Origin: Halomicronema hongdechloris C2206
Lineage (GTDB): Bacteria; Cyanobacteriota; Cyanobacteriia; Phormidesmidales; Phormidesmidaceae
Length of the DNA: 32,000 nucleotides
Assembly: GCF_002075285.3 (NCBI RefSeq)
Contig: NZ_CP021983.2
Location: forward strand, 4,410,001-4,442,000
Reading direction: 5' to 3'
The notes under the pieces are model-generated. The model was not told the origin of the DNA. It made no database searches and saw only the letters and a list, made by a program, of their open reading frames with translations. A program made the translations under genes and the position numbers. Shown one piece after another: positions 1,359 to 31,905 of this stretch. Positions within the stretch are counted from its first letter, which is position 1; the number at the start of each line of letters is the position of its first letter.

Positions 1359-1479
1359 AGCCATGTTCATCATGTCGCCCATATTCACATCACTATCGCC
1401 ATCGGCATCCAAAAAGGCATTGAGAACAGGGTTATCCCCTTGATTCCCCTGGAACGAATCGCACACGTTGCCTATCACC

Positions 1480-1550
1480 CGCCGCAGATAACCTCGAATA
1501 CCCAACCGTCACCTTTTAATGGTCGGATGCATGGGTGTTGTTATACGGCG
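1480..1550 (-). other. attC-like imperfect hairpin no. 1 (recombination-site candidate)
   Basis: The arms CGCCGCAGATAACC...ACCCAACCG (left) and GTCGGATGCATGGGTGTTGTTATACGGCG (right) pair with bulges. It lies 4 nt 3' of the YgiT-type gene stop and shares its right-arm sequence with the sites at 3917-3945 and 6320-6347. Confidence 0.35.
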
Positions 1551-1554
1551 TTGG

Positions 1555-1797
1555 CTATGCTGATTCTAGATGAGTAACCGGAATTTGTTCGGTTCTCTCA
1601 GGAGCTTTCGCTCCAGTTGCAACTGCATGAACTGCATGAAGAATATTGGCTGAGTAGTACCGATTGCCACAAGTATCACAAACACCGATCGTTACATCTT
1701 CGAGGATGACAAATCCATCTCTATGTTTGAATGCCTCACGTTTGACAGTTCGGGGTTGAACAGTTCCTTCGCAATACTCACATTTGTATCCGTACAT
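1555..1797 (-). CDS. YgiT-type zinc-finger protein (MqsA-like antitoxin N-domain)
   Basis: 80 aa beginning MYGYKCEYCEG. Two CxxC pairs (CEYC ... CDTC) have the spacing typical of YgiT zinc fingers. It starts 3 nt after the upstream DUF4258 gene. Confidence 0.8.
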   Translation of the reverse strand: MYGYKCEYCEGTVQPRTVKREAFKHRDGFVILEDVTIGVCDTCGNRYYSANILHAVHAVATGAKAPERTEQIPVTHLESA

Positions 1798-1800
1798 ACG

Positions 1801-2040
1801 TTAGCCCTCAAGTTCAGTGACTTCATAAACCGTGATGATTAAATAGCGTCCGGTACTAGCGAAACGTCCAACCATGCCAACAGGTGTTCGTTGATCTAGC
1901 GCATTTCCCACTACTACATATTTTGTGCCTCTGGGGTCATCCTTTTCAACCTGGATAACTCGACCGTTCAAAACGGCCTCTTCCACATCTAAAATAGTCA
2001 GCATATCCTCAGCCATCTCTTCCATTGCGTGGGCTGACAC
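1801..2040 (-). CDS. DUF4258-type toxin, partner of the YgiT antitoxin; the 5' end abuts a MITE
   Basis: SAHAMEEMAEDML..VEEAVLNG..I...DDPRG resembles the DUF4258 'HA...M..R.I' N-terminus, but only about 2 residues precede it. The only start in the track is a GTG at 2040 that overlaps the MITE end, with internal ATGs at 2025 and 2016. Confidence 0.7.
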   Translation of the reverse strand: MSAHAMEEMAEDMLTILDVEEAVLNGRVIQVEKDDPRGTKYVVVGNALDQRTPVGMVGRFASTGRYLIITVYEVTELEG

Positions 2041-2159
2041 TCATTGACTGACAAAACCGGCTAGAACCCAGACTATCCAAAGGGTCAGGGAACCTGCCCC
2101 CTACAGCATCCGAAATCTGGTAAGGGCGCGGTTTCCGCGCCCAATGCAGAATCTTTTGT
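2040..2159. mobile_element. MITE copy 1, right terminal inverted repeat truncated
   Basis: About 120 bp, nearly identical (2 substitutions seen) to 27219-27340. It carries the left TIR TTGACTGACAAAA and the internal hairpin GGGCGCGG-TTT-CCGCGCCC. The right end stops at CTTTTGT without CAGTCAA. Confidence 0.7.
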
Positions 2160-2407
2160 TCCTCAAGAACGGCTCGAAGATCATCTATTTCCTTCACAGA
2201 ACGAGCTGCCAGGCAATCGAGTATCCACTTTTGTTGCGCCTGAACGTATCCCCATATAAAAGTCAGAATGATAGTCAAAACAATAAGAGCTCCGATCACA
2301 GGCAGGTTTGGTGTAGTCTTTTAGTATAATACTCCAACAACAGCCATAATTACAGATTCAAAAACAAGGAAGAAGTTTAGACGCTCATTGAAATAGTGTT
2401 CTCATGC

Positions 2408-3693
2408 GGGGACCTCGATTAATCAGTTTTCTTTAGCTAATGGCGTCTCATTTGAGACCGTCAAGGTGACTCAAAGAGAGTCCGAGACATTCCACCGAAA
2501 AAAGCTTCCCATTTTGACAAAAAAATAGGGTTGGAAGACCACGTTTAAGTCGATTTCCCGGCTTTAGGTCCGATTATCTTGCCAGTTCAGCCGATGCAGC
2601 ACGTTGGGTTTCGAGACACACAAACCGCTTCAGGTTATACACCAGATTTTTCAGACCTAGCTGGGTCTGGGCACGGGCTAACCCGATGCTGCGCACCACC
2701 TTGCCACCCATGCTGGTGACGACATCTCCGAAGATGTGCTCCACTCTGGCACGGGTTTTGGAGCGCTCTCGATTCGCGGTTTTCTGGGCCTCGCTTAAGG
2801 GGCGATTGCGATAGGCCCGTTCATTTATATGCGGCTCAAACCCTATCAATTTCAGCACCTCGACAATCAGCACGGAGAGATACGCACTATCGGCCCAAAG
2901 TCCATCGCCGCTATTATCCGCATCGAGCAACTCGCCCAAGACCTGCGAGTCATGGACCGACGCATCGGTGACGCTGTAACGGCGAATGAGCTTAAAGCCG
3001 GCATCACTATTGATGTGGTTTTTGTAGCCGTAGTGGGACGTTCCATTTTTCTTCGTCCATCGGGCGTCAACATCTTTTTGCGCGAGCTGATGAGGGGTCT
3101 CTTGCCACTCAACGGGAACCTCACCCTGCTTGAGGGTTTGGTTCTCCTCACGGGTGTTGCGTTGTTTGGGAACTGGAATCAAGGTCGCATCCACAATTTG
3201 CCCATCCTTGGCGGCATAGCCTGCCCCTTGCAGATAGGCTCCAAACTGCTCGAACAACGCCTCCACCAAGCCGTGCTGCTGCAACTGTTCTCGGAAGAGC
3301 CACACCGTCGTTGCATCCGGGACTCTATCCTCAAGCCCCAAACCGAGAAATTGCATGAAGGACAGTCGGTCGTTGACCTGATATTCCAGTTCGTCATCGC
3401 TGATGTTGTATAGCTTTTGCAGCACCAGCATCTTGAAGAGTAACAGGACATCGGTGGGGTTACGACCGGCCTGGCTTTTGCGCGGTTTCTCTCGAATCTG
3501 CATCAGAATCGGACGAAAGGTCTCCCACGGCACCAGTTGATTCAACCGATTCAGTACCGCCTTCTTTTGCTCCAGTTTTTGCTGGCGCTCTTCGATATCC
3601 CAGAATCCCTGCTGTCCCATGGCCTGCGTGCTTCAACAAAACCGACCTTATGATCTCATACTGAGATCGCTCTGGCTATTTTTCGAGGTGCCC
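2408..3693 (-). mobile_element. IS5-family insertion sequence, apparently intact
   Basis: Imperfect terminal inverted repeats GGGGACCTCGATTAATCAG (2408-2426) and the reverse complement of 3675-3693, GGGCACCTCGAAAAATAGC. A 4-bp direct repeat ATGC flanks it at 2404-2407 and 3694-3697. It contains a single transposase ORF. Confidence 0.85.
2574..3620 (-). CDS. IS5-family DDE transposase
   Basis: 348 aa. The N-terminal DUF772-like segment is LLFKMLVLQKLYNISDDELEYQVNDRLSFMQFLGL. The DDE region is IVDATLI ... WADSAY ... RARVEHIFG. Confidence 0.92.
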   Translation of the reverse strand: MGQQGFWDIEERQQKLEQKKAVLNRLNQLVPWETFRPILMQIREKPRKSQAGRNPTDVLLLFKMLVLQKLYNISDDELEYQVNDRLSFMQFLGLGLEDRVPDATTVWLFREQLQQHGLVEALFEQFGAYLQGAGYAAKDGQIVDATLIPVPKQRNTREENQTLKQGEVPVEWQETPHQLAQKDVDARWTKKNGTSHYGYKNHINSDAGFKLIRRYSVTDASVHDSQVLGELLDADNSGDGLWADSAYLSVLIVEVLKLIGFEPHINERAYRNRPLSEAQKTANRERSKTRARVEHIFGDVVTSMGGKVVRSIGLARAQTQLGLKNLVYNLKRFVCLETQRAASAELAR

Positions 3694-3853
3694 ATGCAAA
3701 ATATGCTCAAGCAAGCTGTAGGACTGCTTATTATTATGTTCATCAGACATTACCAATAACCTCAAGACACTATATCAATAGTAACTTCAAAAGATTTTAA
3801 CCCCTTATCACTAAAAAATAATCTTCAAGCACTGCCTTACCGATAAGTGGAGT

Positions 3854-3945
3854 CGTATAACGTTCCGGTTGAGCGGCTACCGATAGCATATGCCATAATA
3901 CCGACCAACTTTGTTAGTCCGCTCCAATCGGGTTGTTATGCGGCG
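3854..3945 (-). other. attC-like imperfect hairpin no. 2
   Basis: Left arm CGTATAACGTTCCGGTTGAGCGG and right arm GTCCGCTCCAATCGGGTTGTTATGCGGCG, with ATAAC/GTTAT and GAGCGG/CCGCTC pairing and bulges between. It lies 24 nt 3' of the PIN gene stop. Confidence 0.35.
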
Positions 3946-3969
3946 CTTTTTCAAGCATTGAGTTGCTTA

Positions 3970-4383
3970 TCACTGAACTTGAATGACATCAAAAGTCCCC
4001 TGATTTTCAATGCGATAGAACAGGAAATCTGAATCGAGTGTGAGAATTCGCCGGAAATTCGTCCTCTCAGCTACCAGCACCAATGACGCATCAGCCAAGT
4101 CCATTGGTCGATCTTGATACTGCTCCATCAGCTCTAATAAACGGGAGTAGTATTGCTCTTGAATTTCGTAAATCACCAAAAGCTTATCTAAGAGCAGTTG
4201 CCCTAGCTGTTTTTGCATCGTCCACCCGCCTCGATGAAGAGCTAAATACATAGCTTCTGTGAAACAAGACCAAGTTGTGAGAAGAGGTGAAGCAATCCGC
4301 CTTACAGCATTTCGGTAAGCTGAGTGTTTTGGCTGAGTGCGATCAACTAAACAAAGCAAAACTCCTGCATCACAAAGAATCAC
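3970..4383 (-). CDS. PIN-domain toxin (VapC-like)
   Basis: 137 aa with the acidic quartet in PIN order: ILCDAG, FTEAMY, LADASLV, TLDSDF. The GTG start overlaps the upstream stop (GTGA). Confidence 0.85.
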   Translation of the reverse strand: MILCDAGVLLCLVDRTQPKHSAYRNAVRRIASPLLTTWSCFTEAMYLALHRGGWTMQKQLGQLLLDKLLVIYEIQEQYYSRLLELMEQYQDRPMDLADASLVLVAERTNFRRILTLDSDFLFYRIENQGTFDVIQVQ

Positions 4384-4640
4384 AATTCTAGACCCTGCTG
4401 CCGATATTTGGATACCAGATGTTGTTGATAGTCGCTAACTGAGTCGGTTGACGTGACTTCTAGATGATCAACAGACTCGAACCACCTTGTCCACGCTTGA
4501 GCCAACTCATCTTTACGATCATCAGTGATAGTGCTATGCCGACGCCGATACATCAAAAAATCTATAAAATCATTGACTTGTTGAAGAAGCGAATCAGGTA
4601 GTTGCTGCAATTTAGCAATAGCAGTTTCACGAATCGTCAT
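4380..4640 (-). CDS. VapB-like antitoxin (DUF2281-type)
   Basis: MTIRETAIAKLQQLPDSLLQQVNDFIDFLMYR matches the '..LP...L.EV.DFI.FL' signature. The ATG at 4640 overlaps the CHAT-TPR stop (ATGA). The track ORF begins further upstream at 4658. Confidence 0.65.
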   Translation of the reverse strand: MTIRETAIAKLQQLPDSLLQQVNDFIDFLMYRRRHSTITDDRKDELAQAWTRWFESVDHLEVTSTDSVSDYQQHLVSKYRQQGLEL

Positions 4641-6142
4641 GAGAGTAACCACCTCCAAAATCCTTTACGGTCTTCTTCAATCTGTCTTTCAATTTGTTTT
4701 ACTTTCTCAAGGGCACTACAGTAACTTTCAATATCTTTCTTCCGTTTGTACAAAGATGCAGCCTCTTGATAGTCTGCAATAGCGCTCTGCCTATTCTGGT
4801 TTTCATTCAGAAAATAGTTCTTCGTCATTCCTCGAATTTCATAGGCAAAGGCAAAGCTAGGCTTGAGACAAATAACCTCAGTAAAATCTGCTATCGCACC
4901 TTGAAAATCCTGTACTTGAAACTTTGCTATTCCACGCGCCAAATGAGCCTTTGTACAGGCCGGTTGAAGACGAATAGCCTCATCAAGATCTTCGATAGCA
5001 CTCTGATGATCTTCTAATCTATCTTTAGTTCTTCCACGATCACAGAAATTACAAGAATAATCTGGTCGAAGACGAATCGCTTCATTGAAATCTTCGATAG
5101 CTTCTTGGTATTTCCTTAAATGATGCTTTACTTTTCCACGGCAGTTGTAAGCGTGGAAGTTATTTGGTTGAAGATGAATTGCTTCACTGAAATCTAGAAT
5201 CGCGCCTCGAAAATCTCGGCAATCTTTCAATTGATCTCTTGCCTTTCCTCGATCTATGTAGAGGTCTGGATTATTTGGTTGAAAACTAATAGCTGTTGTA
5301 TAGTCACCAATCGCGCCCTCGTAATCCTCCAACCGACTTTTTGCCAATCCACAAGCTCTGTAGGCTTTGGCATAATCTGGCTGGAGACAAATAGCTTCTT
5401 GAAAATCTATAATCGCCCCCTGATAATTGCCTGCCTTGTATTTCTCTTTTCCCCGTTCAAAAAAGTCTTCCGCAGTCAATGATTCTGTAGTTTTGGGAAG
5501 TTCCTCAGCAGCTTGCTTAAAAGGGAAAGTTCTCAAATCGAGATTTTGATTCTCTACATCTTCATGCCCAATTTTTTTTGCGAAAAGGACTGGAGTTAAG
5601 TGTTCTGGAATGCCCTCTAGCTGAATCGCATTACAACCCAGTTCATAGGCAAATTCAACTGATTCTCCAGCTCCTAATGCAGTGTAGAAACCGACAGAAA
5701 ATTCAATTGCTGCACGATCACCAATTGCCTGATTCATCCCAATCACGTAATCAATGTGTTGTGCGATCGCCTCAGCTTGAAACTCTGAGTAGCAGGCATT
5801 CAGAACAACGCACTCTACATGATTAGAAAAAAGTTTGAATAAGTTAGCTAACGCATCTGAGCCAATCAGCTTAAGATTTCCTGCCACATCCTCAAAAGCC
5901 AAACCATCTTTCCCTGAACCATGACCTGTGAAATGAACGACCTGTGGCTTAAAGTCCAGCATCGCTTGTTGAATATCTCTTGTACGAGTGGCTCCAGTCG
6001 AGTTAATCGGTACTTTGCCATATCCAGCTAGACGGAGACGCTCCTTAATTTCTCTCTCTTCTTCTTGCAGACGCAAGCTTCCTGTTCCCTTGGGGTTCGC
6101 AGCCAGCAGTAAGATCGATTTTGAGACGACGCCGTCATTCAT
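4637..6142 (-). CDS. CHAT (caspase-like) protease domain fused to about 7 TPR repeats
   Basis: 501 aa. The N-terminal ~190 aa carry a His/Cys dyad context, VVHFTGHGS and VECVVLNACYS, followed by YVIGM..IGD..AIEFSVGFY. The C-terminal part has repeated ..AI.DF.EAI.L.P.. TPR units. Confidence 0.85.
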   Translation of the reverse strand: MNDGVVSKSILLLAANPKGTGSLRLQEEEREIKERLRLAGYGKVPINSTGATRTRDIQQAMLDFKPQVVHFTGHGSGKDGLAFEDVAGNLKLIGSDALANLFKLFSNHVECVVLNACYSEFQAEAIAQHIDYVIGMNQAIGDRAAIEFSVGFYTALGAGESVEFAYELGCNAIQLEGIPEHLTPVLFAKKIGHEDVENQNLDLRTFPFKQAAEELPKTTESLTAEDFFERGKEKYKAGNYQGAIIDFQEAICLQPDYAKAYRACGLAKSRLEDYEGAIGDYTTAISFQPNNPDLYIDRGKARDQLKDCRDFRGAILDFSEAIHLQPNNFHAYNCRGKVKHHLRKYQEAIEDFNEAIRLRPDYSCNFCDRGRTKDRLEDHQSAIEDLDEAIRLQPACTKAHLARGIAKFQVQDFQGAIADFTEVICLKPSFAFAYEIRGMTKNYFLNENQNRQSAIADYQEAASLYKRKKDIESYCSALEKVKQIERQIEEDRKGFWRWLLS

Positions 6143-6257
6143 GAGAGTTTGGCAGGGCAGAGGGCGAATTGACTCTACTCAATTGTATGCCAGACGGAGG
6201 AATTATCCTTTGGCACCGTGAGAACATTGAAACAGCATCCCCACAGGTAGCCTCGAG

Positions 6258-6347
6258 CCGCATAACGGCTGAGTTCAGCGGCGGTAGAAACATTGAAACG
6301 AAGCAAAAGTTGCCAGTCTGTCCGATGCACGCAAGGGTTAGCTGGCG
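6258..6347 (-). other. attC-like imperfect hairpin no. 3 (weakest of the three)
   Basis: Left arm CCGCATAACGGCTGAGTTCAGCGG and right arm GTCCGATGCACGCAAGGGTTAGCTGGCG. It lies 51 nt 3' of the globin-fragment stop. Pairing is poorer, and the loop carries one copy of the 11-bp direct repeat AACATTGAAAC (6223-6233 and 6289-6299). Confidence 0.25.
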
Positions 6348-6398
6348 ATCATTGAAGCAATGGAAGTGATCGAGTAAGAAAATGTTGAGCTTCCTCTG

Positions 6399-6737
6399 TC
6401 AACCCAATCTACAAGATTGGCGATTGTACTCAATCTCTACCCCCATTTGTTGTGCTCGCTTCACATGGGCAGGAATCATGACTGAACAGATTAGTGACCA
6501 AAGCTCAACCCATGCTGCTTTAGTATCATCATTAAACCGATCCCCTAGCATTCTTTCAAAAGTTGTAACAATAGCTAGCCCCACTGGACTATAGTGCTTA
6601 GCCTTTGTTTGATACTGAACATGACGCTCTGCTAAATCCTGTAAAATTGGGATGAGTTCTGGATCGATTTCTAGACGTTCTTCTCCCAGCATCTCATCGA
6701 ATGTGCCTGGTAATAAGCTTAAAGCAGCATCAACCAT
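6399..6737 (-). pseudogene. 5'-truncated globin-domain gene (E-H helices only)
   Basis: MVDAALSLL..(F-helix) ILQDLAERHVQY .. KHYSPVGLAIVTTFERMLGDRF..AAWVELWSLICSVMI aligns by eye with the C-terminal two thirds of bacterial globins. The roughly 50 N-terminal residues (A-C helices) are absent. The ORF upstream of 6737 is non-globin read-through. Confidence 0.6.
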
Positions 6738-7086
6738 TTGTGTTTCCCTCCTGGAAGCGGTCAGTGGATCCACGCTCTCAGGTGGTAGGGCGTCATCATG
6801 TCTATGAGCAATCGGTGCAGCGGGCCGTGAAGCAGGCGATTCAACCAGCTGGTATTGCTAAGCATGGTGGGTGCCACACGTTTCGTCATAGTTTTGCCAC
6901 CCACCTGCTGGAAGATGGTTACGATATTCGCACCGTGCAGGAGCTGCTGGGGCATAAAGATGTGAAAACCACCATGATTTATACCAAAGGCATTTCAGAG
7001 CACGAGACAACATTGTCAGGTCTGAAATGCCTTCGAATGGGCTGAATCGGGGTGGGCAAGGCGTGCGGAGTCCGCTAGATAGCTAA
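6737..7086 (+). pseudogene. intI: integron-type tyrosine recombinase (IntI) remnant: 5'-truncated, with a frame break near the catalytic Tyr
   Basis: [74 protein letters not shown]. After a 56-bp hairpin-containing insertion the reading continues in another frame as [14 protein letters not shown]-stop (7042-7086). The DPRS..V.RHH segment is the IntI-specific insertion absent from XerC/D. Confidence 0.78.
6989..7031. repeat. perfect 11-bp-stem hairpin inside the intI remnant
   Basis: GGCATTTCAGA (6989-6999) and TCTGAAATGCC (7021-7031) are separated by a 21-nt loop. The hairpin sits exactly where the HV codons of MIYTHVLNRGG are expected. Confidence 0.6.
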
Positions 7087-12165: not shown

Positions 12166-12630
12166 TCAGTTACTGGAATGGGGTGAAACGTCGACTATGG
12201 GATTGCGTTGATTGCCGCGGAAAATAGCGATGCGTTCCTGGTCGGCACTGGTGTAGTCCGGGTCAACGTAGATAAACACGCGCCGAATGAGGTCGCCTCG
12301 AAACTCGAAAACGTTGCAGAAACGCCCCTCCGAGATCAGGCCATCGGGCCAGCGTACGTCATTTCGGGTAACTCCACGTTCGGTACCTTCCACCACAACG
12401 GAGTCGCCCGCAACGATGTAGTTGAAGTTCTCAATGTCGTGCTCAAGTCGCTCCAGATGGCGACCCATAATCTCCGAAAACTGGATCATGTCGGCTTTGC
12501 CGTAGCCGAAGCCAAATTTGGGAAAGAACATCTGAACGTCTTCAGTGAACAGATCGAAGACGGTGGCGTCTTTGGCATCAATTTTTCTGAAATAAGCTTC
12601 GACAATCCTGATTCGTTCTTTCGGATTCAT
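12166..12630 (-). CDS. NTF2-like / SnoaL-family protein
   Basis: 154 aa. IVEAYFRKIDAKD...LFTEDV...VAGDSVVVEGTERG...FEFRGDLIRRVFIYVD is the cone-fold pattern of SnoaL-like proteins. Confidence 0.78.
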   Translation of the reverse strand: MNPKERIRIVEAYFRKIDAKDATVFDLFTEDVQMFFPKFGFGYGKADMIQFSEIMGRHLERLEHDIENFNYIVAGDSVVVEGTERGVTRNDVRWPDGLISEGRFCNVFEFRGDLIRRVFIYVDPDYTSADQERIAIFRGNQRNPIVDVSPHSSN

Positions 12631-12749
12631 GTCAGTATTTGTTCAACCTCTTCTAGGCTTGACAAAGTGAAAATGGTCTATAAGATGTGTGATTTTATCA
12701 TCAAAAACTCGCTTTCCAGAAGCATTAAAAATTTGAATCTCTGGATTGT

Positions 12750-13283
12750 TTAGAAATGAATTTCCTGTGCATTATTTTCACTCTCGCCAATGGCCTTTGC
12801 CACCGCAAAGCCATCTTCAAAGATTCTGTAACGGGTTATTAAGCTACCTTGCACGGAAAACTCGAATGCGAATTCACTTTTAATTATCTTGCCTGTGCTT
12901 TTTACCAGTGTTTCTAGTGCGCCTAGTGCGATCCCTTGATGGCCTTCGACGACAATCGAGCGAATGTCGAACTTAATCGGTTCAGTGTATGAACGCAGCT
13001 CTTGAATAAAATCTACAACGCCACTACGTCCATGTCTGCGACCAATCCACGGGACAATGTCAACAGCACCAGGGATATAAAAGTCGACATCCTCGCTGAA
13101 TAAAGATGCAATCAATTCTGGCTCCGCATCTGCATAAACCATCTTGAAATATTGGCTCACTACACTTCGAGTCATTGTCTGTTGCACCGTTGCATTCTTC
13201 AGTAATTCATTTCGAGACGTTGGAGCATTGCCTAACTCAGTTGAGAACGTGTCCGAAAGTCTTTGGTTCTTGAAAAATTCCAC
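12750..13283 (-). CDS. NTF2-like / SnoaL-family protein in a low-GC segment; start uncertain
   Basis: VVSQYFKMVYADAEPELIASLFSEDVDFYIPG...VVEGHQGIALG...FEFSVQGSLITRYRIFED. The track start is a GTG at 13283, with an internal ATG at 13175. Confidence 0.65.
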   Translation of the reverse strand: MEFFKNQRLSDTFSTELGNAPTSRNELLKNATVQQTMTRSVVSQYFKMVYADAEPELIASLFSEDVDFYIPGAVDIVPWIGRRHGRSGVVDFIQELRSYTEPIKFDIRSIVVEGHQGIALGALETLVKSTGKIIKSEFAFEFSVQGSLITRYRIFEDGFAVAKAIGESENNAQEIHF

Positions 13284-13335
13284 CTCAGGGCTCCTCTTGA
13301 TTTTGGAATTGACATGTATAGCAATCCCAGTTGAT

Positions 13336-13872
13336 TTATGAACAAGGTGAATATTCTTCTATTTTAGAAAAATCGAACTTTTGATGATCTATAAAGAACT
13401 CAAACAGATACTTTACAGCGGGGAAAGAACGACACAACCTCCAAAATCTTCTCAATGAATTTTTGGCTTGTAACCAAACATCTTCCACTGGATTTTGTTC
13501 TGGTGAATTGGGTGCAAATAGAATACATTTGAATTGCCATTCTGTCTCTTCCTTCCCATGATTGACTGTAGCTAAAAAATCTTTGATCTCTTGTGACTTA
13601 TGATAACTAGCGCCATCCCAAATTAATGCGATTTGCTTCCCAGGATTTTGTTCCTGCAAGTACTTCATAAAAGCAACTGTATTCTCTCCATTCCCTTTCT
13701 CGTAAGGATGCAAAATAAATTCTTTTGTTTGATAGTTTAATGCGCCATAATATGTTTGCCTGATTCTCTCGTTTGTAATAGGGATTTCGATTCGCATATC
13801 TGTCTTGCCCCAGACATATCCACAAACATCACCCCAAAGGAGATGACACTCATCCAAAAAAAGTACAATCAA
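13336..13872 (-). CDS. IS630 transposase, DDE catalytic part (orfB frame)
   Basis: LFLDECHLLWGD ... LIWDGASYHKS ... FAPNSPEQNPVEDVW is the DDE (D,D,35E-type) signature. The frame stays open upstream as far as the A9 run at 13909-13917. Confidence 0.88.
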   Translation of the reverse strand: MIVLFLDECHLLWGDVCGYVWGKTDMRIEIPITNERIRQTYYGALNYQTKEFILHPYEKGNGENTVAFMKYLQEQNPGKQIALIWDGASYHKSQEIKDFLATVNHGKEETEWQFKCILFAPNSPEQNPVEDVWLQAKNSLRRFWRLCRSFPAVKYLFEFFIDHQKFDFSKIEEYSPCS

Positions 13873-14453
13873 TTCCCCAGACTCAATTTTGAACTGGTTT
13901 TGACGGATAAATCCTTGGATTTCTTCTCTTTTTTTTTGACTAGAGCTGGATCAGATTTCGGGTTGGTTTTTTGAGATTTCTTCCAACTAATACCTGCTTC
14001 CGAAAAAAGTGTATAGTAGCTTTGCTTAGACTTGTAAATCACATCATAATGTTCATCTAAATATGAAACTAATTCATCAAAGTTCCAGTAGTTTCTGGTT
14101 CTCAGCCACGAGATAATTTCTGTACGATCATCTGGGGTTAGGTAACTTTTTGATCCTTGGTAGCCGAGTTTAATACCTTCAATGCCTTGTGCTTCGAATC
14201 TGTTCTTCCAATATGTAATAAAAGACTTGTTTATTCCCAGAAATTTGGTAATCTTAAAATATGGCTCACCCTCCAATGCCATTTTTACAGCCAATGCTCG
14301 CTTAAGCTCTCTTGAATCAGGATTACTACTTATAAAGTCTGATAGAATAGCACGATTATCTACTTTTTGTTGGTGTTCTAATTGAAAACTATTCATGAGT
14401 ACAACTGTATTGACAGCTTGATGATATTTATATACTACCCATTCTAAACTCAT
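13869..14453 (-). CDS. IS630 transposase, N-terminal HTH part (orfA frame)
   Basis: Paired HTH / winged-helix-like segments (ALAVKMALEGEPYFKITKFLGINKSFITYWKNRFEAQGIEGI). It ends KKKEKKSK... and then stops 40 nt after the A9 run. Confidence 0.85.
   Translation of the reverse strand: MSLEWVVYKYHQAVNTVVLMNSFQLEHQQKVDNRAILSDFISSNPDSRELKRALAVKMALEGEPYFKITKFLGINKSFITYWKNRFEAQGIEGIKLGYQGSKSYLTPDDRTEIISWLRTRNYWNFDELVSYLDEHYDVIYKSKQSYYTLFSEAGISWKKSQKTNPKSDPALVKKKEKKSKDLSVKTSSKLSLGN
13909..13917 (-). promoter_or_regulatory. A9 slippery run: candidate -1 frameshift or transcriptional slippage site joining orfA to orfB
   Basis: On the minus strand, GTC AAA AAA AAA GAG. Shifting -1 gives KKREEIQGFIRQNQFKIESGELIVLFLDECH, which reads straight into the DDE domain. 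Confidence 0.55.
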
Positions 14454-14462
14454 TTAGGGTTG

Positions 14463-15326
14463 CTATATCAGTGATGGCATCAAATTCAGGGCAGCATCCG
14501 GATGCAAGGGTTGGCTCATCAAAATTGAAAGGCTAATAGTAGCGATCAGGAGAACAGCCACTCTTTGAATGAGGGCATCGGCACCCAAGACCAGTCGCAG
14601 CGGTGGATCGGGGTGATCGACTACTTGCATCATGGCAGCGGCAGCCTTTTGAGGATCGCCCGGTTGCTGACCATGCATCTGACGTAGCCAGTGCATCATC
14701 TGACCGCTGGTTTCGGCATAATCCTGGATTGTCTGTGCCGGCGAGCGGAGTACGCCATTGAAGGCCGTGCGGAACGCGCCGGGCTCGACAATCGTGACGC
14801 GAATGCCCAGCGGGGCAACTTCCTGGGCCAACGCTTCTGACCATCCCTCCAGGGCAAATTTTGACGCACCGTAAATGCCGGCACCAGGAAAGCCCACAAA
14901 GCCGCCACTAGAGGAGATATTTAGAATGTGACCGGAGCGCTGGCGACGCAGATGGGGCAGCAGGGCACACGTCACCTCCAACGCCCCATAGACGTTCGTT
15001 TCAAATTGTTGTCTGACAGCTGGAGCGGTCACTTCCTCCACCGCTCCGAACACACCGTATCCAGCATTGTTCACCAGCACGTCGACGTGGCCAAAGGCTT
15101 GCAGAGCGTGCATGACAGCCGTCTGTATGGCAAAGGGTTGGGTGACATCCAGGGGCAGCGCCAGGAGGCGATCGCCATACTGCTGCACTAAATCGGTCAG
15201 ACGTTCCGGCTTACGGGCGGTAGCAACAACGCTGTCGCCAAGTTCCAGTACTGTTTCGGTTAGCGCGCGGCCCAACCCTCTGGAACTGCCGGTGATGAAC
15301 CAAATTCTTGGTTGTTGTGTAGTCAT
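14463..15326 (-). CDS. classical short-chain dehydrogenase/reductase (SDR)
   Basis: WFITGSSRGLG (TGxxxGxG), NNAG, and YGASKFALE (YxxxK). The ATG at 15326 is preceded by GGAGAT. The stop TAG (14463-14465) lies in the last 3 nt of the IS630 terminus. Confidence 0.88.
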   Translation of the reverse strand: MTTQQPRIWFITGSSRGLGRALTETVLELGDSVVATARKPERLTDLVQQYGDRLLALPLDVTQPFAIQTAVMHALQAFGHVDVLVNNAGYGVFGAVEEVTAPAVRQQFETNVYGALEVTCALLPHLRRQRSGHILNISSSGGFVGFPGAGIYGASKFALEGWSEALAQEVAPLGIRVTIVEPGAFRTAFNGVLRSPAQTIQDYAETSGQMMHWLRQMHGQQPGDPQKAAAAMMQVVDHPDPPLRLVLGADALIQRVAVLLIATISLSILMSQPLHPDAALNLMPSLI

Positions 15327-27564: not shown

Positions 27565-27638
27565 GGGACTGTAGTTCAACCGGTTAGAGCACCGCCCTGT
27601 CACGGCGGAAGTTGCGGGTTCGAATCCCGTCAGTCCCG
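27565..27638 (+). tRNA. tRNA-Asp (anticodon GTC)
   Basis: A 74-nt cloverleaf folded by hand: acceptor GGGACTG/CAGTCCC, D stem GTTC/GAGC, anticodon stem CCGCC/GGCGG with loop CTGTCAC, and T arm GCGGG-TTCGAAT-CCCGT. The discriminator is G, and no CCA is encoded. Confidence 0.93.
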
Positions 27639-29896: not shown

Positions 29897-31207
29897 GTGC
29901 TTACTCAAATCGAATTAAAAAATTTCAAGAGCTACAGATCAGGCACTTTGCAACTTGGACGGTTGACCGTACTCATCGGGGCTAATGCTTCTGGAAAGAG
30001 CAACGTAATTGAAGCGCTACGCTTGCTAGCAAGAATTGCTGAGGGAGAACGACTTAGCCTTTTGGGTGGGCCTTATAAGCAAGACGAAACAATTTTTAGG
30101 GGAGGAGTAGAGAATCTTGGCTATCGGGGTTCAAAATCTTTCGGGCTTTCTTGTGTAACAACAGAGCCAGAGTGGAAAGATCTCTCAATCGATTTAAGTC
30201 TTGGAGGAGATGGAGATCTTCATGTTACCAAGGAAAAAATTACAAGTCATACTTCAACAGTTCCTTTGTATGAAATTACAAGCGCACCTCAAGGGGCTGG
30301 AAGTGACGTATTTGTTACTTATAACAATTTTGCCAGAGGTGGGAAAAAACCTAGCATAGTATGCAGCAGTCATATGGCAATTTTTACACAACTTTTGAGT
30401 GATATCCGCTTCCGTCCAGAGAACACTAAAAGTCGAAAAATAATTCCTAAGGTTGCTGAACGATATGTTCAATGGTTAAGTAGCATCGTATTTCTTGAGC
30501 CTGAGCCAAGCTCAATGCGCTCTTATGGTCATAAAGTTGATAAGGTACTCAAAGAGCATGGTGAAAACCTTTCAGGGGTAATCTATAACTTATGTCTTAA
30601 CCCAAATGTCAAAAGTTCGGTTCTGGATTTCGTTCAAAGTTTGCCTGAACAGGATATTGAAAATATCGATTTCATAGAAACACCTCGTGATGAGGTTATG
30701 CTACAGCTAACTGAAACCTTTGGCGGTGCATCGACTACCTATGATGCTTCCATACTTTCAGATGGAACTTTACGCGTGCTCTCTATTGCTGCAGCAATGC
30801 TTTCTGCACCTGAGCAAAGTTTAGTTGTTATTGAAGAAATCGATAACGGCGTACATCCTAGCAGAGCAGCAGATTTGTTAGAGCGGATTTCTAGTATTGC
30901 AAAGAACCGTGATTTACGGGTTCTAATTAGCAGCCATAATCCCGCACTTCTTGATGCCCTGCCTGATGAAGCCATTCCTGAAACTGTATTTTGCTATCGA
31001 AGTCCTCAAGATGGATCAAGTCAGTTAGTTAGATTGCAGGACATTCCCGACTATCCCGAACTCATTGCTCAGGGGTCTGTTGGGCACCTCATGACTCGCG
31101 GACTATTAGAACGGTTTGTTAAGCAACATCCCGGAACAGAGCAGAAAAAGAAGAAAGCAATGGAGTGGCTAGCTTCTCTCGCTGTGGTAGGGGAACCGAG
31201 AGAATGA
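29897..31207 (+). CDS. ABC/SMC-like AAA ATPase (AAA_15/21-type, as in PARIS AriA / Septu PtuA-class proteins)
   Basis: 436 aa with GTG start and GGAG 8 nt upstream. IELKNFKSY..., Walker A GANASGKSN, signature-like LSDGTLRVL, Walker B LVVIEEIDNGVHP and H-loop LISSHNP. Confidence 0.85.
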   Translation: MLTQIELKNFKSYRSGTLQLGRLTVLIGANASGKSNVIEALRLLARIAEGERLSLLGGPYKQDETIFRGGVENLGYRGSKSFGLSCVTTEPEWKDLSIDLSLGGDGDLHVTKEKITSHTSTVPLYEITSAPQGAGSDVFVTYNNFARGGKKPSIVCSSHMAIFTQLLSDIRFRPENTKSRKIIPKVAERYVQWLSSIVFLEPEPSSMRSYGHKVDKVLKEHGENLSGVIYNLCLNPNVKSSVLDFVQSLPEQDIENIDFIETPRDEVMLQLTETFGGASTTYDASILSDGTLRVLSIAAAMLSAPEQSLVVIEEIDNGVHPSRAADLLERISSIAKNRDLRVLISSHNPALLDALPDEAIPETVFCYRSPQDGSSQLVRLQDIPDYPELIAQGSVGHLMTRGLLERFVKQHPGTEQKKKKAMEWLASLAVVGEPRE

Positions 31208-31659
31208 AAGCAGTTGCAATTGTTGATACATCTATATTCTGCAATGTTCTCGATATTCCTCATATGAATAGTGAACGGACTCAGGTAATGCAAAAGTTGA
31301 AAGATTTACTTGAGGAAAGTACTAATCTTCTTCTACCTATGGCTGCCGTCTATGAAACAGGGAATCATATTGCTCAACTCAGTGATGGTGGAAACCGGCG
31401 TCAATTTGCTGAAGTTTTCATTGAGCAAGTCAAGAAAGCGATAAAAGGGGAAGCACCTTGGCAAGTTATGCAGCTGCCAGATATGGAGGAGGTTGGAGAA
31501 TGGCTAAGTAACTTTCCTGATTCAGCAATGCGTGGCGCAGGTATGGGAGACTTATCAATAATCAAAGAGTGGGAGAAGACGATTAGGATAACGCCCAATC
31601 ACCGTATTTTTATATGGTCTTTAGATGGCGATCTTCAGGGATATGATCATATTCCTTGA
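31204..31659 (+). CDS. PIN-like putative nuclease, translationally coupled to the ATPase
   Basis: The ATG at 31204 overlaps the ATPase TGA (ATGA). Acidic residues fall in PIN order: VAIVDTSIF, AAVYETGNH, GMGDLSII, IWSLDGDL. The fold assignment is an inference from motif order only. Confidence 0.55.
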   Translation: MKAVAIVDTSIFCNVLDIPHMNSERTQVMQKLKDLLEESTNLLLPMAAVYETGNHIAQLSDGGNRRQFAEVFIEQVKKAIKGEAPWQVMQLPDMEEVGEWLSNFPDSAMRGAGMGDLSIIKEWEKTIRITPNHRIFIWSLDGDLQGYDHIP

Positions 31660-31905
31660 TCCTAATAATTAAGCTTTAGCTAGCAGTGTTGACTTTTATG
31701 CAAAAATCTGTTCCCTTTCGAGAAAATCTTATTGATTCTAGGCTTTCGCAAAAAGCTGACAATTCAAATGCAGCGGACAGTTTTGAGCCGTTGCTGCTGA
31801 GTTTAAGGTTGTCTGCTGCCGATGATTTGAGCCGTTCCCTCTCCAGGCAAGCCTTTGACTTGAGAAAGTCGCATCAATGCGTCGCAACCTCCTCGGAACC
31901 TAACG

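Follow-up and report, generated by a model that had tools for sequence, protein, structure and literature searches.

Introduction

[quoted passage not shown] In the cyanobacterium Microcystis aeruginosa, the caspase-like protease MaOC1 cleaves the free antitoxin of the ParE/ParD-like pair that follows it, and the pair becomes toxic (PMC7935541). Additionally, Kaur et al. described conflict proteins in which a constant caspase is joined to a variable C-terminal domain, for which autoproteolytic release has been proposed (PMC7159879, PMC8195603), and recent evidence indicates that integrons stockpile defence genes (bioRxiv 10.1101/2024.07.02.601719). Here, a locus in which these themes meet is described from Halomicronema hongdechloris C2206. 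It lies in a 32,000-nucleotide stretch of contig NZ_CP021983.2 (positions 4,410,001 to 4,442,000; hereafter the window, whose numbering is used throughout) and consists of three overlapping reverse-strand genes, which encode a CHAT-tetratricopeptide repeat (TPR) protein, a VapB-like antitoxin and a VapC toxin with a PIN domain. Based on its sequence features, this three-gene block is a single integron gene cassette.

The locus resembles sedentary chromosomal integrons, such as the Vibrio super-integrons and CALIN or intI-pseudogene remnants (PMC4889954), in that the TA pair lies directly upstream of an attC site in the same orientation. Further likenesses are a divergent intI, more than one TA-like cassette in the array, an insertion sequence (IS) element and a decayed integrase. 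In contrast to those systems, the TA pair apparently has no cassette or promoter of its own, but shares its cassette with, and is coupled to, a 501-aa protease gene; moreover, the host is cyanobacterial and only loci related to this one were used to define the attC family. The likeness to MaOC1 is that, in a cyanobacterium, a type II TA pair comes directly after a gene for a clan CD caspase-like cysteine protease, and that the locus is bounded by repeats (PMC7935541). The preliminary description of the window, which knew of no characterised precedent for such an architecture, therefore has to be corrected, given that MaOC1 is followed by a ParE/ParD-like pair whose antitoxin it cleaves (PMC7935541). 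The two loci nevertheless differ in several respects. MaOC1 is a Peptidase_C14 orthocaspase with a ParE/ParD-like pair, whereas CHAT is found here with a DUF2281/PIN pair; the repeats flank only the TA pair there, whereas attC sites flank all three genes here; and cleavage was demonstrated experimentally there, whereas here there is adjacency alone, conserved in one clade.

With the EACC1/EACC2-caspase systems, the locus shares a constant N-terminal caspase-like module whose C-termini differ between close relatives, and enrichment of the family in multicellular bacteria. Unlike those systems, the CHAT module is minimal (~190 aa), cassette-borne and, in one clade, has a TA pair attached. No 5' EACC1 or EACC2 membrane gene was found, and an attC lies ~110 nt upstream of the CHAT start, with no gene in the interval, in the window and in four related loci (L095, L002, L007 and L009; loci retrieved in this work carry the prefix L). 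The CHAT fold, the His/Cys motifs and the logic of combining a sensor with CHAT are also found in SAVED-CHAT, a type III CRISPR accessory whose structure 8TL0 matches the CHAT domain best in both fold and sequence, and in Csx29/Craspase (type III-E). Membership of these groups was considered and rejected: the order is CHAT then TPR (not TPR-CHAT), nothing outside the CHAT part matched SAVED, and the 32-kb window holds no cas or gRAMP-sized gene, its longest open reading frame (ORF) being 525 aa. Overall, the components and concepts, namely integron cassettes, integron TA cassettes, a caspase-like protease with a TA pair, and constant-caspase/variable-domain proteins, are already known. What appears to be new is a three-gene cassette in which a TA pair has been joined to a CHAT-sensor gene and is coupled to it in translation, and a cyanobacterial attC family that carries a modular repertoire of CHAT fusions.

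Delimitation of the three-gene cassette

The three genes are all on the reverse strand. The CHAT-TPR gene (4637..6142) encodes 501 aa, with the CHAT module at residues 1-190 (nt 6142..5573) and about seven TPRs at residues ~215-470. The vapB-like antitoxin gene (4380..4640) encodes 86 aa, counted from its ATG, with DUF2281 at the N-terminus, and the vapC gene (3970..4383) encodes a 137-aa PIN-domain toxin from a GTG start. The preliminary description had placed these three ORFs identically and had linked them by two short overlaps, both of which can be read directly in the sequence: the vapB ATG overlaps the CHAT-TPR stop codon in ATGA at 4640-4637, and the vapC GTG overlaps the vapB stop codon in GTGA at 4383-4380. 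The lower G+C content that it reported for the block was also borne out (40-45%, versus 52-60% in the nearby backbone). A plasmid megablast search with the three-gene block gave no match, and an exact look-up of the 501-aa product found no record in the collection searched.

Two attC-like hairpins had been proposed to flank the block, and this was upheld by covariance-model matches on either side of it. The model was built from an 11-sequence alignment of the element after vapC and is specific to this attC family. The cassette's own attC follows vapC (3849..3946, reverse strand) and scored 77.7 bits, as a training copy of the model. It is composed of R'' GCCGCATAAC at 3944..3935, L'' CCGATTGGAGCGG with one extrahelical G, L' CCGCTCAACCGG, and R' GTTATAC (3861..3855, reverse strand), with the cassette ending at G3861. 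The upstream attC-like site (6254..6348, reverse strand) is degenerate and belongs to the preceding cassette; it was scored with the filters off (covariance model R1, 23.1 bits, E 5e-4). Its R' box is GTTATGC (6266..6260, reverse strand), which puts the recombination point between G6266 and T6265. The covariance-model scan found no attC between the 6254-6348 and 3849-3946 sites, and hence none between CHAT and vapC.

The element after vapC recurs in 11 loci, and is kept after vapC also in loci without CHAT. Its anatomy is that of an attC site, with R'' (..TAAC), L'' with one always-unpaired base (column 28), L' and R' (GTTA..), of which TAAC and GTTA are conserved. In the 11-sequence alignment, 79.8% of cells were paired versus 27-42% in slid registers, and the covariation score was 0.165 versus at most 0.059; none of 500 shuffles reached the observed values. 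Folding the two hairpin regions as single DNA sequences was not significant (z -0.6 to -1.2), and taken alone would have wrongly dismissed both attC sites. RNAalifold consensus folding recovered only the L''/L' stem. A scan of Rfam, which is without an attC model, found only a tRNA at the gathering threshold.

The boundaries of the cassette are marked by homology and by pairing of its ends, two features that are specific to cassettes formed by an integrase. Homology among 12 CHAT cassettes starts exactly at the recombination point, between G and TTATGCGG. In the window, the first bases of the cassette (G followed by TTATGCGGC) complement R'' of the attC after vapC at 10 of 10 positions (GTTATGCGGC against GCCGCATAAC). 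The cassette 5' end also matches its own R'' at 10/10 in L095 and, with compensatory changes (GTTATGCTGC / GCAGCATAAC), in L009 and cassette 1 of L022, while cassette 3 of L022 is complementary at 9/10 (GTTAGGCTGC / ACAGCCTAAC). When the partners of this pairing were permuted, p was about 0.0006. DNA homology between the linked loci falls into two blocks, one covering the leader and CHAT module, and the other covering vapBC and 40-110 nt past its stop. The conserved leader spans ~110-120 nt in the leader alignment (6143..6265 in the window, reverse strand), with DNA homology reaching window positions 6297 and 6266 in L002 and L005, respectively. Because the homology starts at the G/TT recombination point and the 5' end complements its own R'', the three genes are read as one 2,405-bp cassette on the reverse strand, from T6265 to G3861.

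Domains and predicted activities of the encoded proteins

The CHAT domain was matched by Pfam at residues 12-161 of the 501-aa protein (E 4e-9), and the PADLOC 'chat' model matched as well (E 9e-19). Several Pfam TPR families matched between residues 231 and 470, a region encoded by six to seven copies of a 102-nt repeat unit, in agreement with the roughly seven TPRs first counted, and the protein ends in a conserved tail (...KGFWRWLLS). The catalytic residues are H74 (codon 5923-5921) within HFTGHG and C117 (codon 5794-5792) within VVLNAC. This His/Cys dyad, which had originally been recognised by motif, holds in structure-based comparison and among homologues: each residue is at least 90% conserved across 16 homologues, and the motifs align to HFIGHG and VVLNAC of 8TL0 (profile match, E 1e-15). 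An AlphaFold2 model of residues 1-210 had moderate confidence (pLDDT 70.5, pTM 0.70), and in a Foldseek search it matched the CHAT domain of 8TL0 with a TM score of 0.69 (E 2e-9); separase, C11 proteases and caspase-4 were weaker matches. With its modelled caspase-hemoglobinase fold and His-Gly...Ala-Cys dyad, the CHAT part is a predicted clan CD cysteine protease.

The assignment of the two smaller products as a DUF2281-type antitoxin and a PIN toxin is likewise sustained. On the 86-aa protein, DUF2281 exceeded the Pfam cut-off (28.2 versus 26.5 bits; E 3e-6), and NCBIfam TA_VapB matched under its 60-bit cut-off (32 bits, E 1e-7). The 137-aa protein matched PIN in Pfam (E 1e-9) and M. tuberculosis VapC26 (PDB 5x3t; E 3e-6), with the acidic Asp/Glu residues aligned. 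In an alignment of 32 homologues, VapC was strongly conserved and the PIN acidic positions were invariant, while VapB consisted of a hypervariable linker (residues 31-50) and a conserved C-terminal half. The linker was equally hypervariable in pairs not linked to CHAT, no cleavage motif specific to the CHAT-linked clade was found in this alignment, and VapB of linked loci was without an extension relative to unlinked homologues. Judged by gene features, namely the PIN acidic residues and a small overlapping antitoxin gene upstream, the pair is a type II VapBC.

The CHAT module and its fusion partners

The N-terminal CHAT module of ~190 aa is strongly conserved in cyanobacteria and gave 2,727 matches, with identities of 58-92% among the top 120. 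Besides standing alone, it is joined to a wide range of C-terminal domains, including TPR, multi-transmembrane (multi-TM), AAA_35, TRADD-like N, Shedu SduA nuclease, GUN4, pterin dehydratase and acyl carrier protein, as well as FGE-sulfatase and TIR-like sequences. Several of these CHAT fusions (CHAT-X) occupy cassettes without a TA pair (L007, L008, L009, L011, L022 and L024). In its domain layout, the CHAT family resembles the conflict proteins that pair a constant caspase with a variable C-terminus.

Individual members of the family offer additional observations. In Nostoc sp. T09 (L012, 3686-4903), a CHAT module with 80% identity is fused to the C-terminal nuclease domain of Shedu SduA (Pfam SduA_C E 5e-14; PADLOC SduA E 5e-20). 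The module most similar to the CHAT module of the window (92% at the amino acid level, and 90.7% at the DNA level over window positions 6266-5537) is in an Elainellaceae metagenome-assembled genome (L005), where the ORF stops after 209 aa, 100 nt short of the contig end, so that any TPR/TA part beyond is not visible. At L001/L005, L014, L015, L017, L023 and L061, ORFs of ~115-120 aa and 320-350 aa come after several CHAT-X genes; these are the sizes of bAvd and reverse transcriptase genes. L001 has a bAvd and reverse transcriptase pair with a C14-FGE-sulfatase target upstream, and L061 and L062 are CHAT-FGE-sulfatase fusions. This suggests that some CHAT family members are targets of diversity-generating retroelements.

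Conservation of the linkage between CHAT and VapBC

The surroundings of 160 loci were examined over about ±5 kb. A genome scan with the CHAT module supplied 80 loci (L005-L084), in which the pair was sought by tblastn with VapB and VapC of the window, and a metagenome scan with VapC supplied 80 loci in which VapC was 44-88% identical. The pair was directly downstream of CHAT in four fetched loci: Phormidesmis priestleyi ULC007 (L006) and the metagenomic contigs L002, L003 and L004, which were obtained through close homologues. Conversely, about 76 of the 80 genomic CHAT-module loci (~95%) were without the TA pair. In the metagenome scan, CHAT was upstream of VapC in L090, L091, L093/L094 and L095, and TPR remnants were upstream of VapC in L085, L088, L104 and L107. 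CHAT was absent upstream in at least 20 loci with enough upstream sequence and a VapC 71-82% identical, and VapBC-only cassettes were seen in L102, L103 and L143.

In total, the order CHAT-X, DUF2281, PIN occurs in eight distinct loci (the window, L006, L002, L003/L004, L090, L091, L093/L094 and L095). Across the linked loci, VapB is 60-66% and VapC 79-86% identical to the window, and the 4-nt overlaps are kept in most; all six CHAT-TPR fusions seen are followed by the TA pair. In a neighbour-joining tree of VapB and VapC, every linked pair falls in one clade, to which L107 is sister and within which L142, a locus without CHAT, is nested. The clade formed by the linked pairs, made up of the eight distinct loci and decayed derivatives, points to one origin of the linkage. 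At the level of these sequences, the linkage arose once and was co-inherited, and is not general to the CHAT or the VapBC family. Thus, of the adjacency put forward in the preliminary description, its conservation beyond chance stands, given that the order recurs in eight loci, but its generality does not, as it is confined to one clade and about 76 of 80 CHAT loci are without the pair.

Within the linked cassettes, the segments are conserved to very different degrees: 86-95% identity for the CHAT module, 77-98% for VapC and 61-77% for VapB, against 32-61% for the TPR segment. L006 and L093/L094 have, instead of the TPR segment, a multi-TM domain unrelated to it, with 58% identity between their two TM domains. 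VapBC is intact while CHAT-X is broken or lost in L002, L085, L088, L107 and L142, and the reverse decay (CHAT kept and VapBC broken) was found in no locus among those examined. A 348-aa ORF stands in the place of CHAT in L142; it was compared with the IS5 transposase of the window and is not the same.

A separate observation concerns the related metagenomes Ga0224722 and Ga0224723 (L091, L093/L094, L095, L090 and L104), which contain at least four different CHAT-X/VapBC cassettes. Among these, VapC is 95-98% and VapB 74-77% identical, while the middle segments are unrelated (TPR versus TM). This suggests paralogous cassettes whose flanks were homogenised by gene conversion and whose antitoxin linkers are fast-evolving.

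Proposed origin of the composite cassette

The junction between the CHAT-TPR and vapB genes retains traces of its formation. All TPR-type ORFs end in GFW(R/E)xL(F/L)S followed by the stop codon in the ATGA overlap, and this tail is encoded by the conserved leader and ribosome-binding region of vapB. The leaders of unlinked VapBC pairs are homologous in the tail region, with TGA where the linked leaders have TGG. In the TM-type loci, a non-coding remnant of the TPR-type tail is present in the 34-43 nt before vapB, which indicates both that the TM type derives from the TPR type and that the TPR frame reads into a former TA leader. The simplest history would be that a CHAT-TPR cassette fused with a neighbouring VapBC cassette and that the intervening attC and the TA leader were lost. 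The TPR reading frame would now cross the old vapB ribosome-binding region to ATGA, and after the fusion the composite unit would have been inherited and moved as a whole.

The cassette leader contains a conserved ATACAAT. In the window, its TACAAT (6187..6182) stands 40 nt ahead of the ATG and is a candidate for the -10 box of a promoter carried by the cassette. A strict sigma-70 scan found no site in the cassette leader, and a simple promoter and terminator scan was uninformative upstream of CHAT and vapB. Because the fusion would have removed the TA leader, VapBC is probably without a promoter of its own, and would be transcribed from the promoter in the cassette leader and translationally coupled to CHAT-TPR.

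Function of the cassette

The reading that we favour, and regard as fairly probable, is that of a composite integron cassette made by fusion, in which an autonomous TA pair is co-expressed with the CHAT gene. The pair would act as an autonomous addiction module that hinders loss of the cassette, as TA cassettes do in sedentary chromosomal integrons; the persistence of VapBC while CHAT decays is the behaviour of such a module. The CHAT-TPR protein would be the sensor-protease of a conflict or defence system, and may act through autoproteolysis. A conflict-type role for CHAT-X is argued by the fusion partners, which include Shedu SduA, TRADD-like N and AAA_35, and by the divergence of the TPR segment (32-61% identity, versus 77-95% in the flanks). 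With a composite cassette of this kind, a dedicated step from protease to antitoxin would not be required. Several points nonetheless weigh against the composite-cassette reading. The 4-nt coupling and co-transcription suit a functional operon equally well, none of the six CHAT-TPR fusions lacks the TA pair, the pair was retained through the swap from TPR to multi-TM, and there is a published case of a caspase homologue cleaving the antitoxin encoded next to it (PMC7935541). Moreover, the coverage was about ±5 kb at 160 loci, with a covariance model restricted to the one attC family; given a weak upstream attC (23 bits) and an intI reduced to a fragment, present-day mobility is unproven; and the promoter assignment, the loss of the TA promoter and the addiction role are elements that we infer.

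Some of the same observations are what would be expected of a tripartite sensor-protease, antitoxin and toxin module, as put forward in the preliminary description. In the form considered here, the TPR or multi-TM segment would sense a trigger, CHAT would cleave VapB (probably in linker residues 31-50), and the freed VapC RNase would stop growth, with cassette-borne abortive infection or regulated dormancy as the outcome. The invariable presence of the pair behind CHAT-TPR and its survival of the C-terminal domain swap fit such a module, as does the retention of gene order and, mostly, of coupling in eight distinct loci, in which VapB is 61-77% identical. Both the CHAT catalytic dyad and the PIN catalytic residues are intact. 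Additionally, TPR is a sensor-type domain without an effector, whereas relatives carry effectors in cis (a Shedu nuclease or TIR-like domain), and MaOC1 cleaves the antitoxin of an adjacent ParE/ParD-like pair (PMC7935541). However, CHAT and the TA pair became associated once in evolution, TA pairs of this family are often found without CHAT (some of them as cassettes of their own), and ~95% of the sampled CHAT-module loci are without the TA pair. The VapB linker is as variable in unlinked pairs and bears no signature of the linked clade, and CHAT has been lost repeatedly while VapBC persists. We therefore hold the tripartite module to be possible but doubtful. Its extension to an integrase-mobilisable immune cassette, where a constant, minimal CHAT gated by an exchangeable and fast-evolving TPR or multi-TM sensor would cleave co-translated VapB and free the VapC RNase, is unlikely, although if true it would represent a portable sensor-protease-TA abortive-infection module shuffled between cyanobacteria by integrons. 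It is much less likely still that the TPR protein is an adaptor or chaperone that binds VapB or VapBC with no proteolysis of VapB, by a logic like that of toxin-antitoxin-chaperone (TAC) systems, with CHAT cleaving itself or further substrates. TPRs serve as scaffolds for protein binding, production in stoichiometric amounts is suggested by the tight coupling, and every TPR-type protein has a conserved C-terminal helix after the TPRs; yet the multi-TM variants keep VapBC without a TPR, VapB is not extended relative to its unlinked homologues, a SecB-like chaperone is absent, and the proposal is purely speculative. Finally, a chance juxtaposition of unrelated genes or cassettes that share no unit might be imagined in a mosaic region such as this one, with its IS5 element, globin fragment and intI fragment, and TA pairs do insert promiscuously. 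This is hardly credible and has already been refuted, as the genes overlap with no attC between them, the cassette ends match across all three genes, and the arrangement recurs in eight distinct loci from different genera and metagenomes.

Integron context and other features of the window

The host integron of the cassette is decayed and chromosomal. A C-terminal fragment of an integron integrase gene (intI; 6701..7045, forward strand) matched NCBIfam TIGR02249 integrase_gron (E 8e-43) at model positions 215-307 of 315. The fragment points away from the cassettes, as in the canonical layout of an integron, and is missing its N-terminal two thirds; no further intI pieces were found in other frames at the locus. 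It leaves the normal ...IYTHVL ending after IYT, and past this divergence point is a perfect 13-nt inverted repeat (6987-6999 / 7021-7033). Three reverse-strand attC matches (at 6254, 3849 and 1455) lie beside a divergent intI fragment, with intI truncated and attI absent. Searching the fetched loci for an intact IntI with the window fragment gave only weak generic tyrosine recombinases. Related loci contain attC arrays in the same orientation, with four sites in L022, four in L103 and three in L002.

The next cassette of the array (1455..3860, reverse strand) has ends that complement at 9/10, and its attC (1455..1551, reverse strand) scored 30 bits with the covariance model. It carries a TA-like pair composed of a DUF4258 gene (1801..2040) and a zinc-ribbon gene (1555..1797; 80 aa, CxxC...CxxC). 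An IS5-type DDE transposase gene is inserted in this cassette (2574..3620), and a cluster mate of its product is named IS5Y InsH of H. hongdechloris; a quick scan did not find IS5 inverted repeats. Between the intI fragment and the first attC is a 124-aa ORF (6399-6773, reverse strand) that overlaps the start of the intI fragment. Its match to a globin domain, of a globin or a flavohaemoprotein, is confined to the C-terminal half of that domain (Pfam Globin E 1.5e-7), and it is probably a gene remnant.

Elsewhere in the window, a low-G+C island (29897-31842, forward strand) encodes two proteins that PADLOC lists as a candidate defence pair, namely PDC-M07A (436 aa, E 3e-194) and PDC-M07B (164 aa, E 7e-61). 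The pair is followed by a degenerate attC-like element (31753..31842, forward strand; covariance model 37.5 bits) with GAC/GTT instead of AAC/GTT, and the island, at a distance from the array, may likewise be a defence locus that originated as a cassette. A second low-G+C island (12500-14500, 35-41%) contains a fragment of a DDE_3 transposase (13336-13872) next to a gene for a SnoaL-like protein (12750-13283), and a tRNA gene is present at 27565-27638 (forward strand).

Implications

The supposed tripartite system is recast here as a composite integron cassette, by which the conserved linkage can be explained without a biochemical link. As a compact and naturally packaged protease and TA unit, it also offers a testable case in a second protease/TA family after MaOC1. 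If the TA pair is merely an addiction module, then the locus would illustrate how fusion can protect a cargo cassette against loss. More broadly, an attC family of filamentous cyanobacteria appears to move a modular set of CHAT fusions, whose partners include at least one recognised effector of defence, the Shedu nuclease, and this family adds to the evidence for the stockpiling of defence genes by integrons (bioRxiv 10.1101/2024.07.02.601719).

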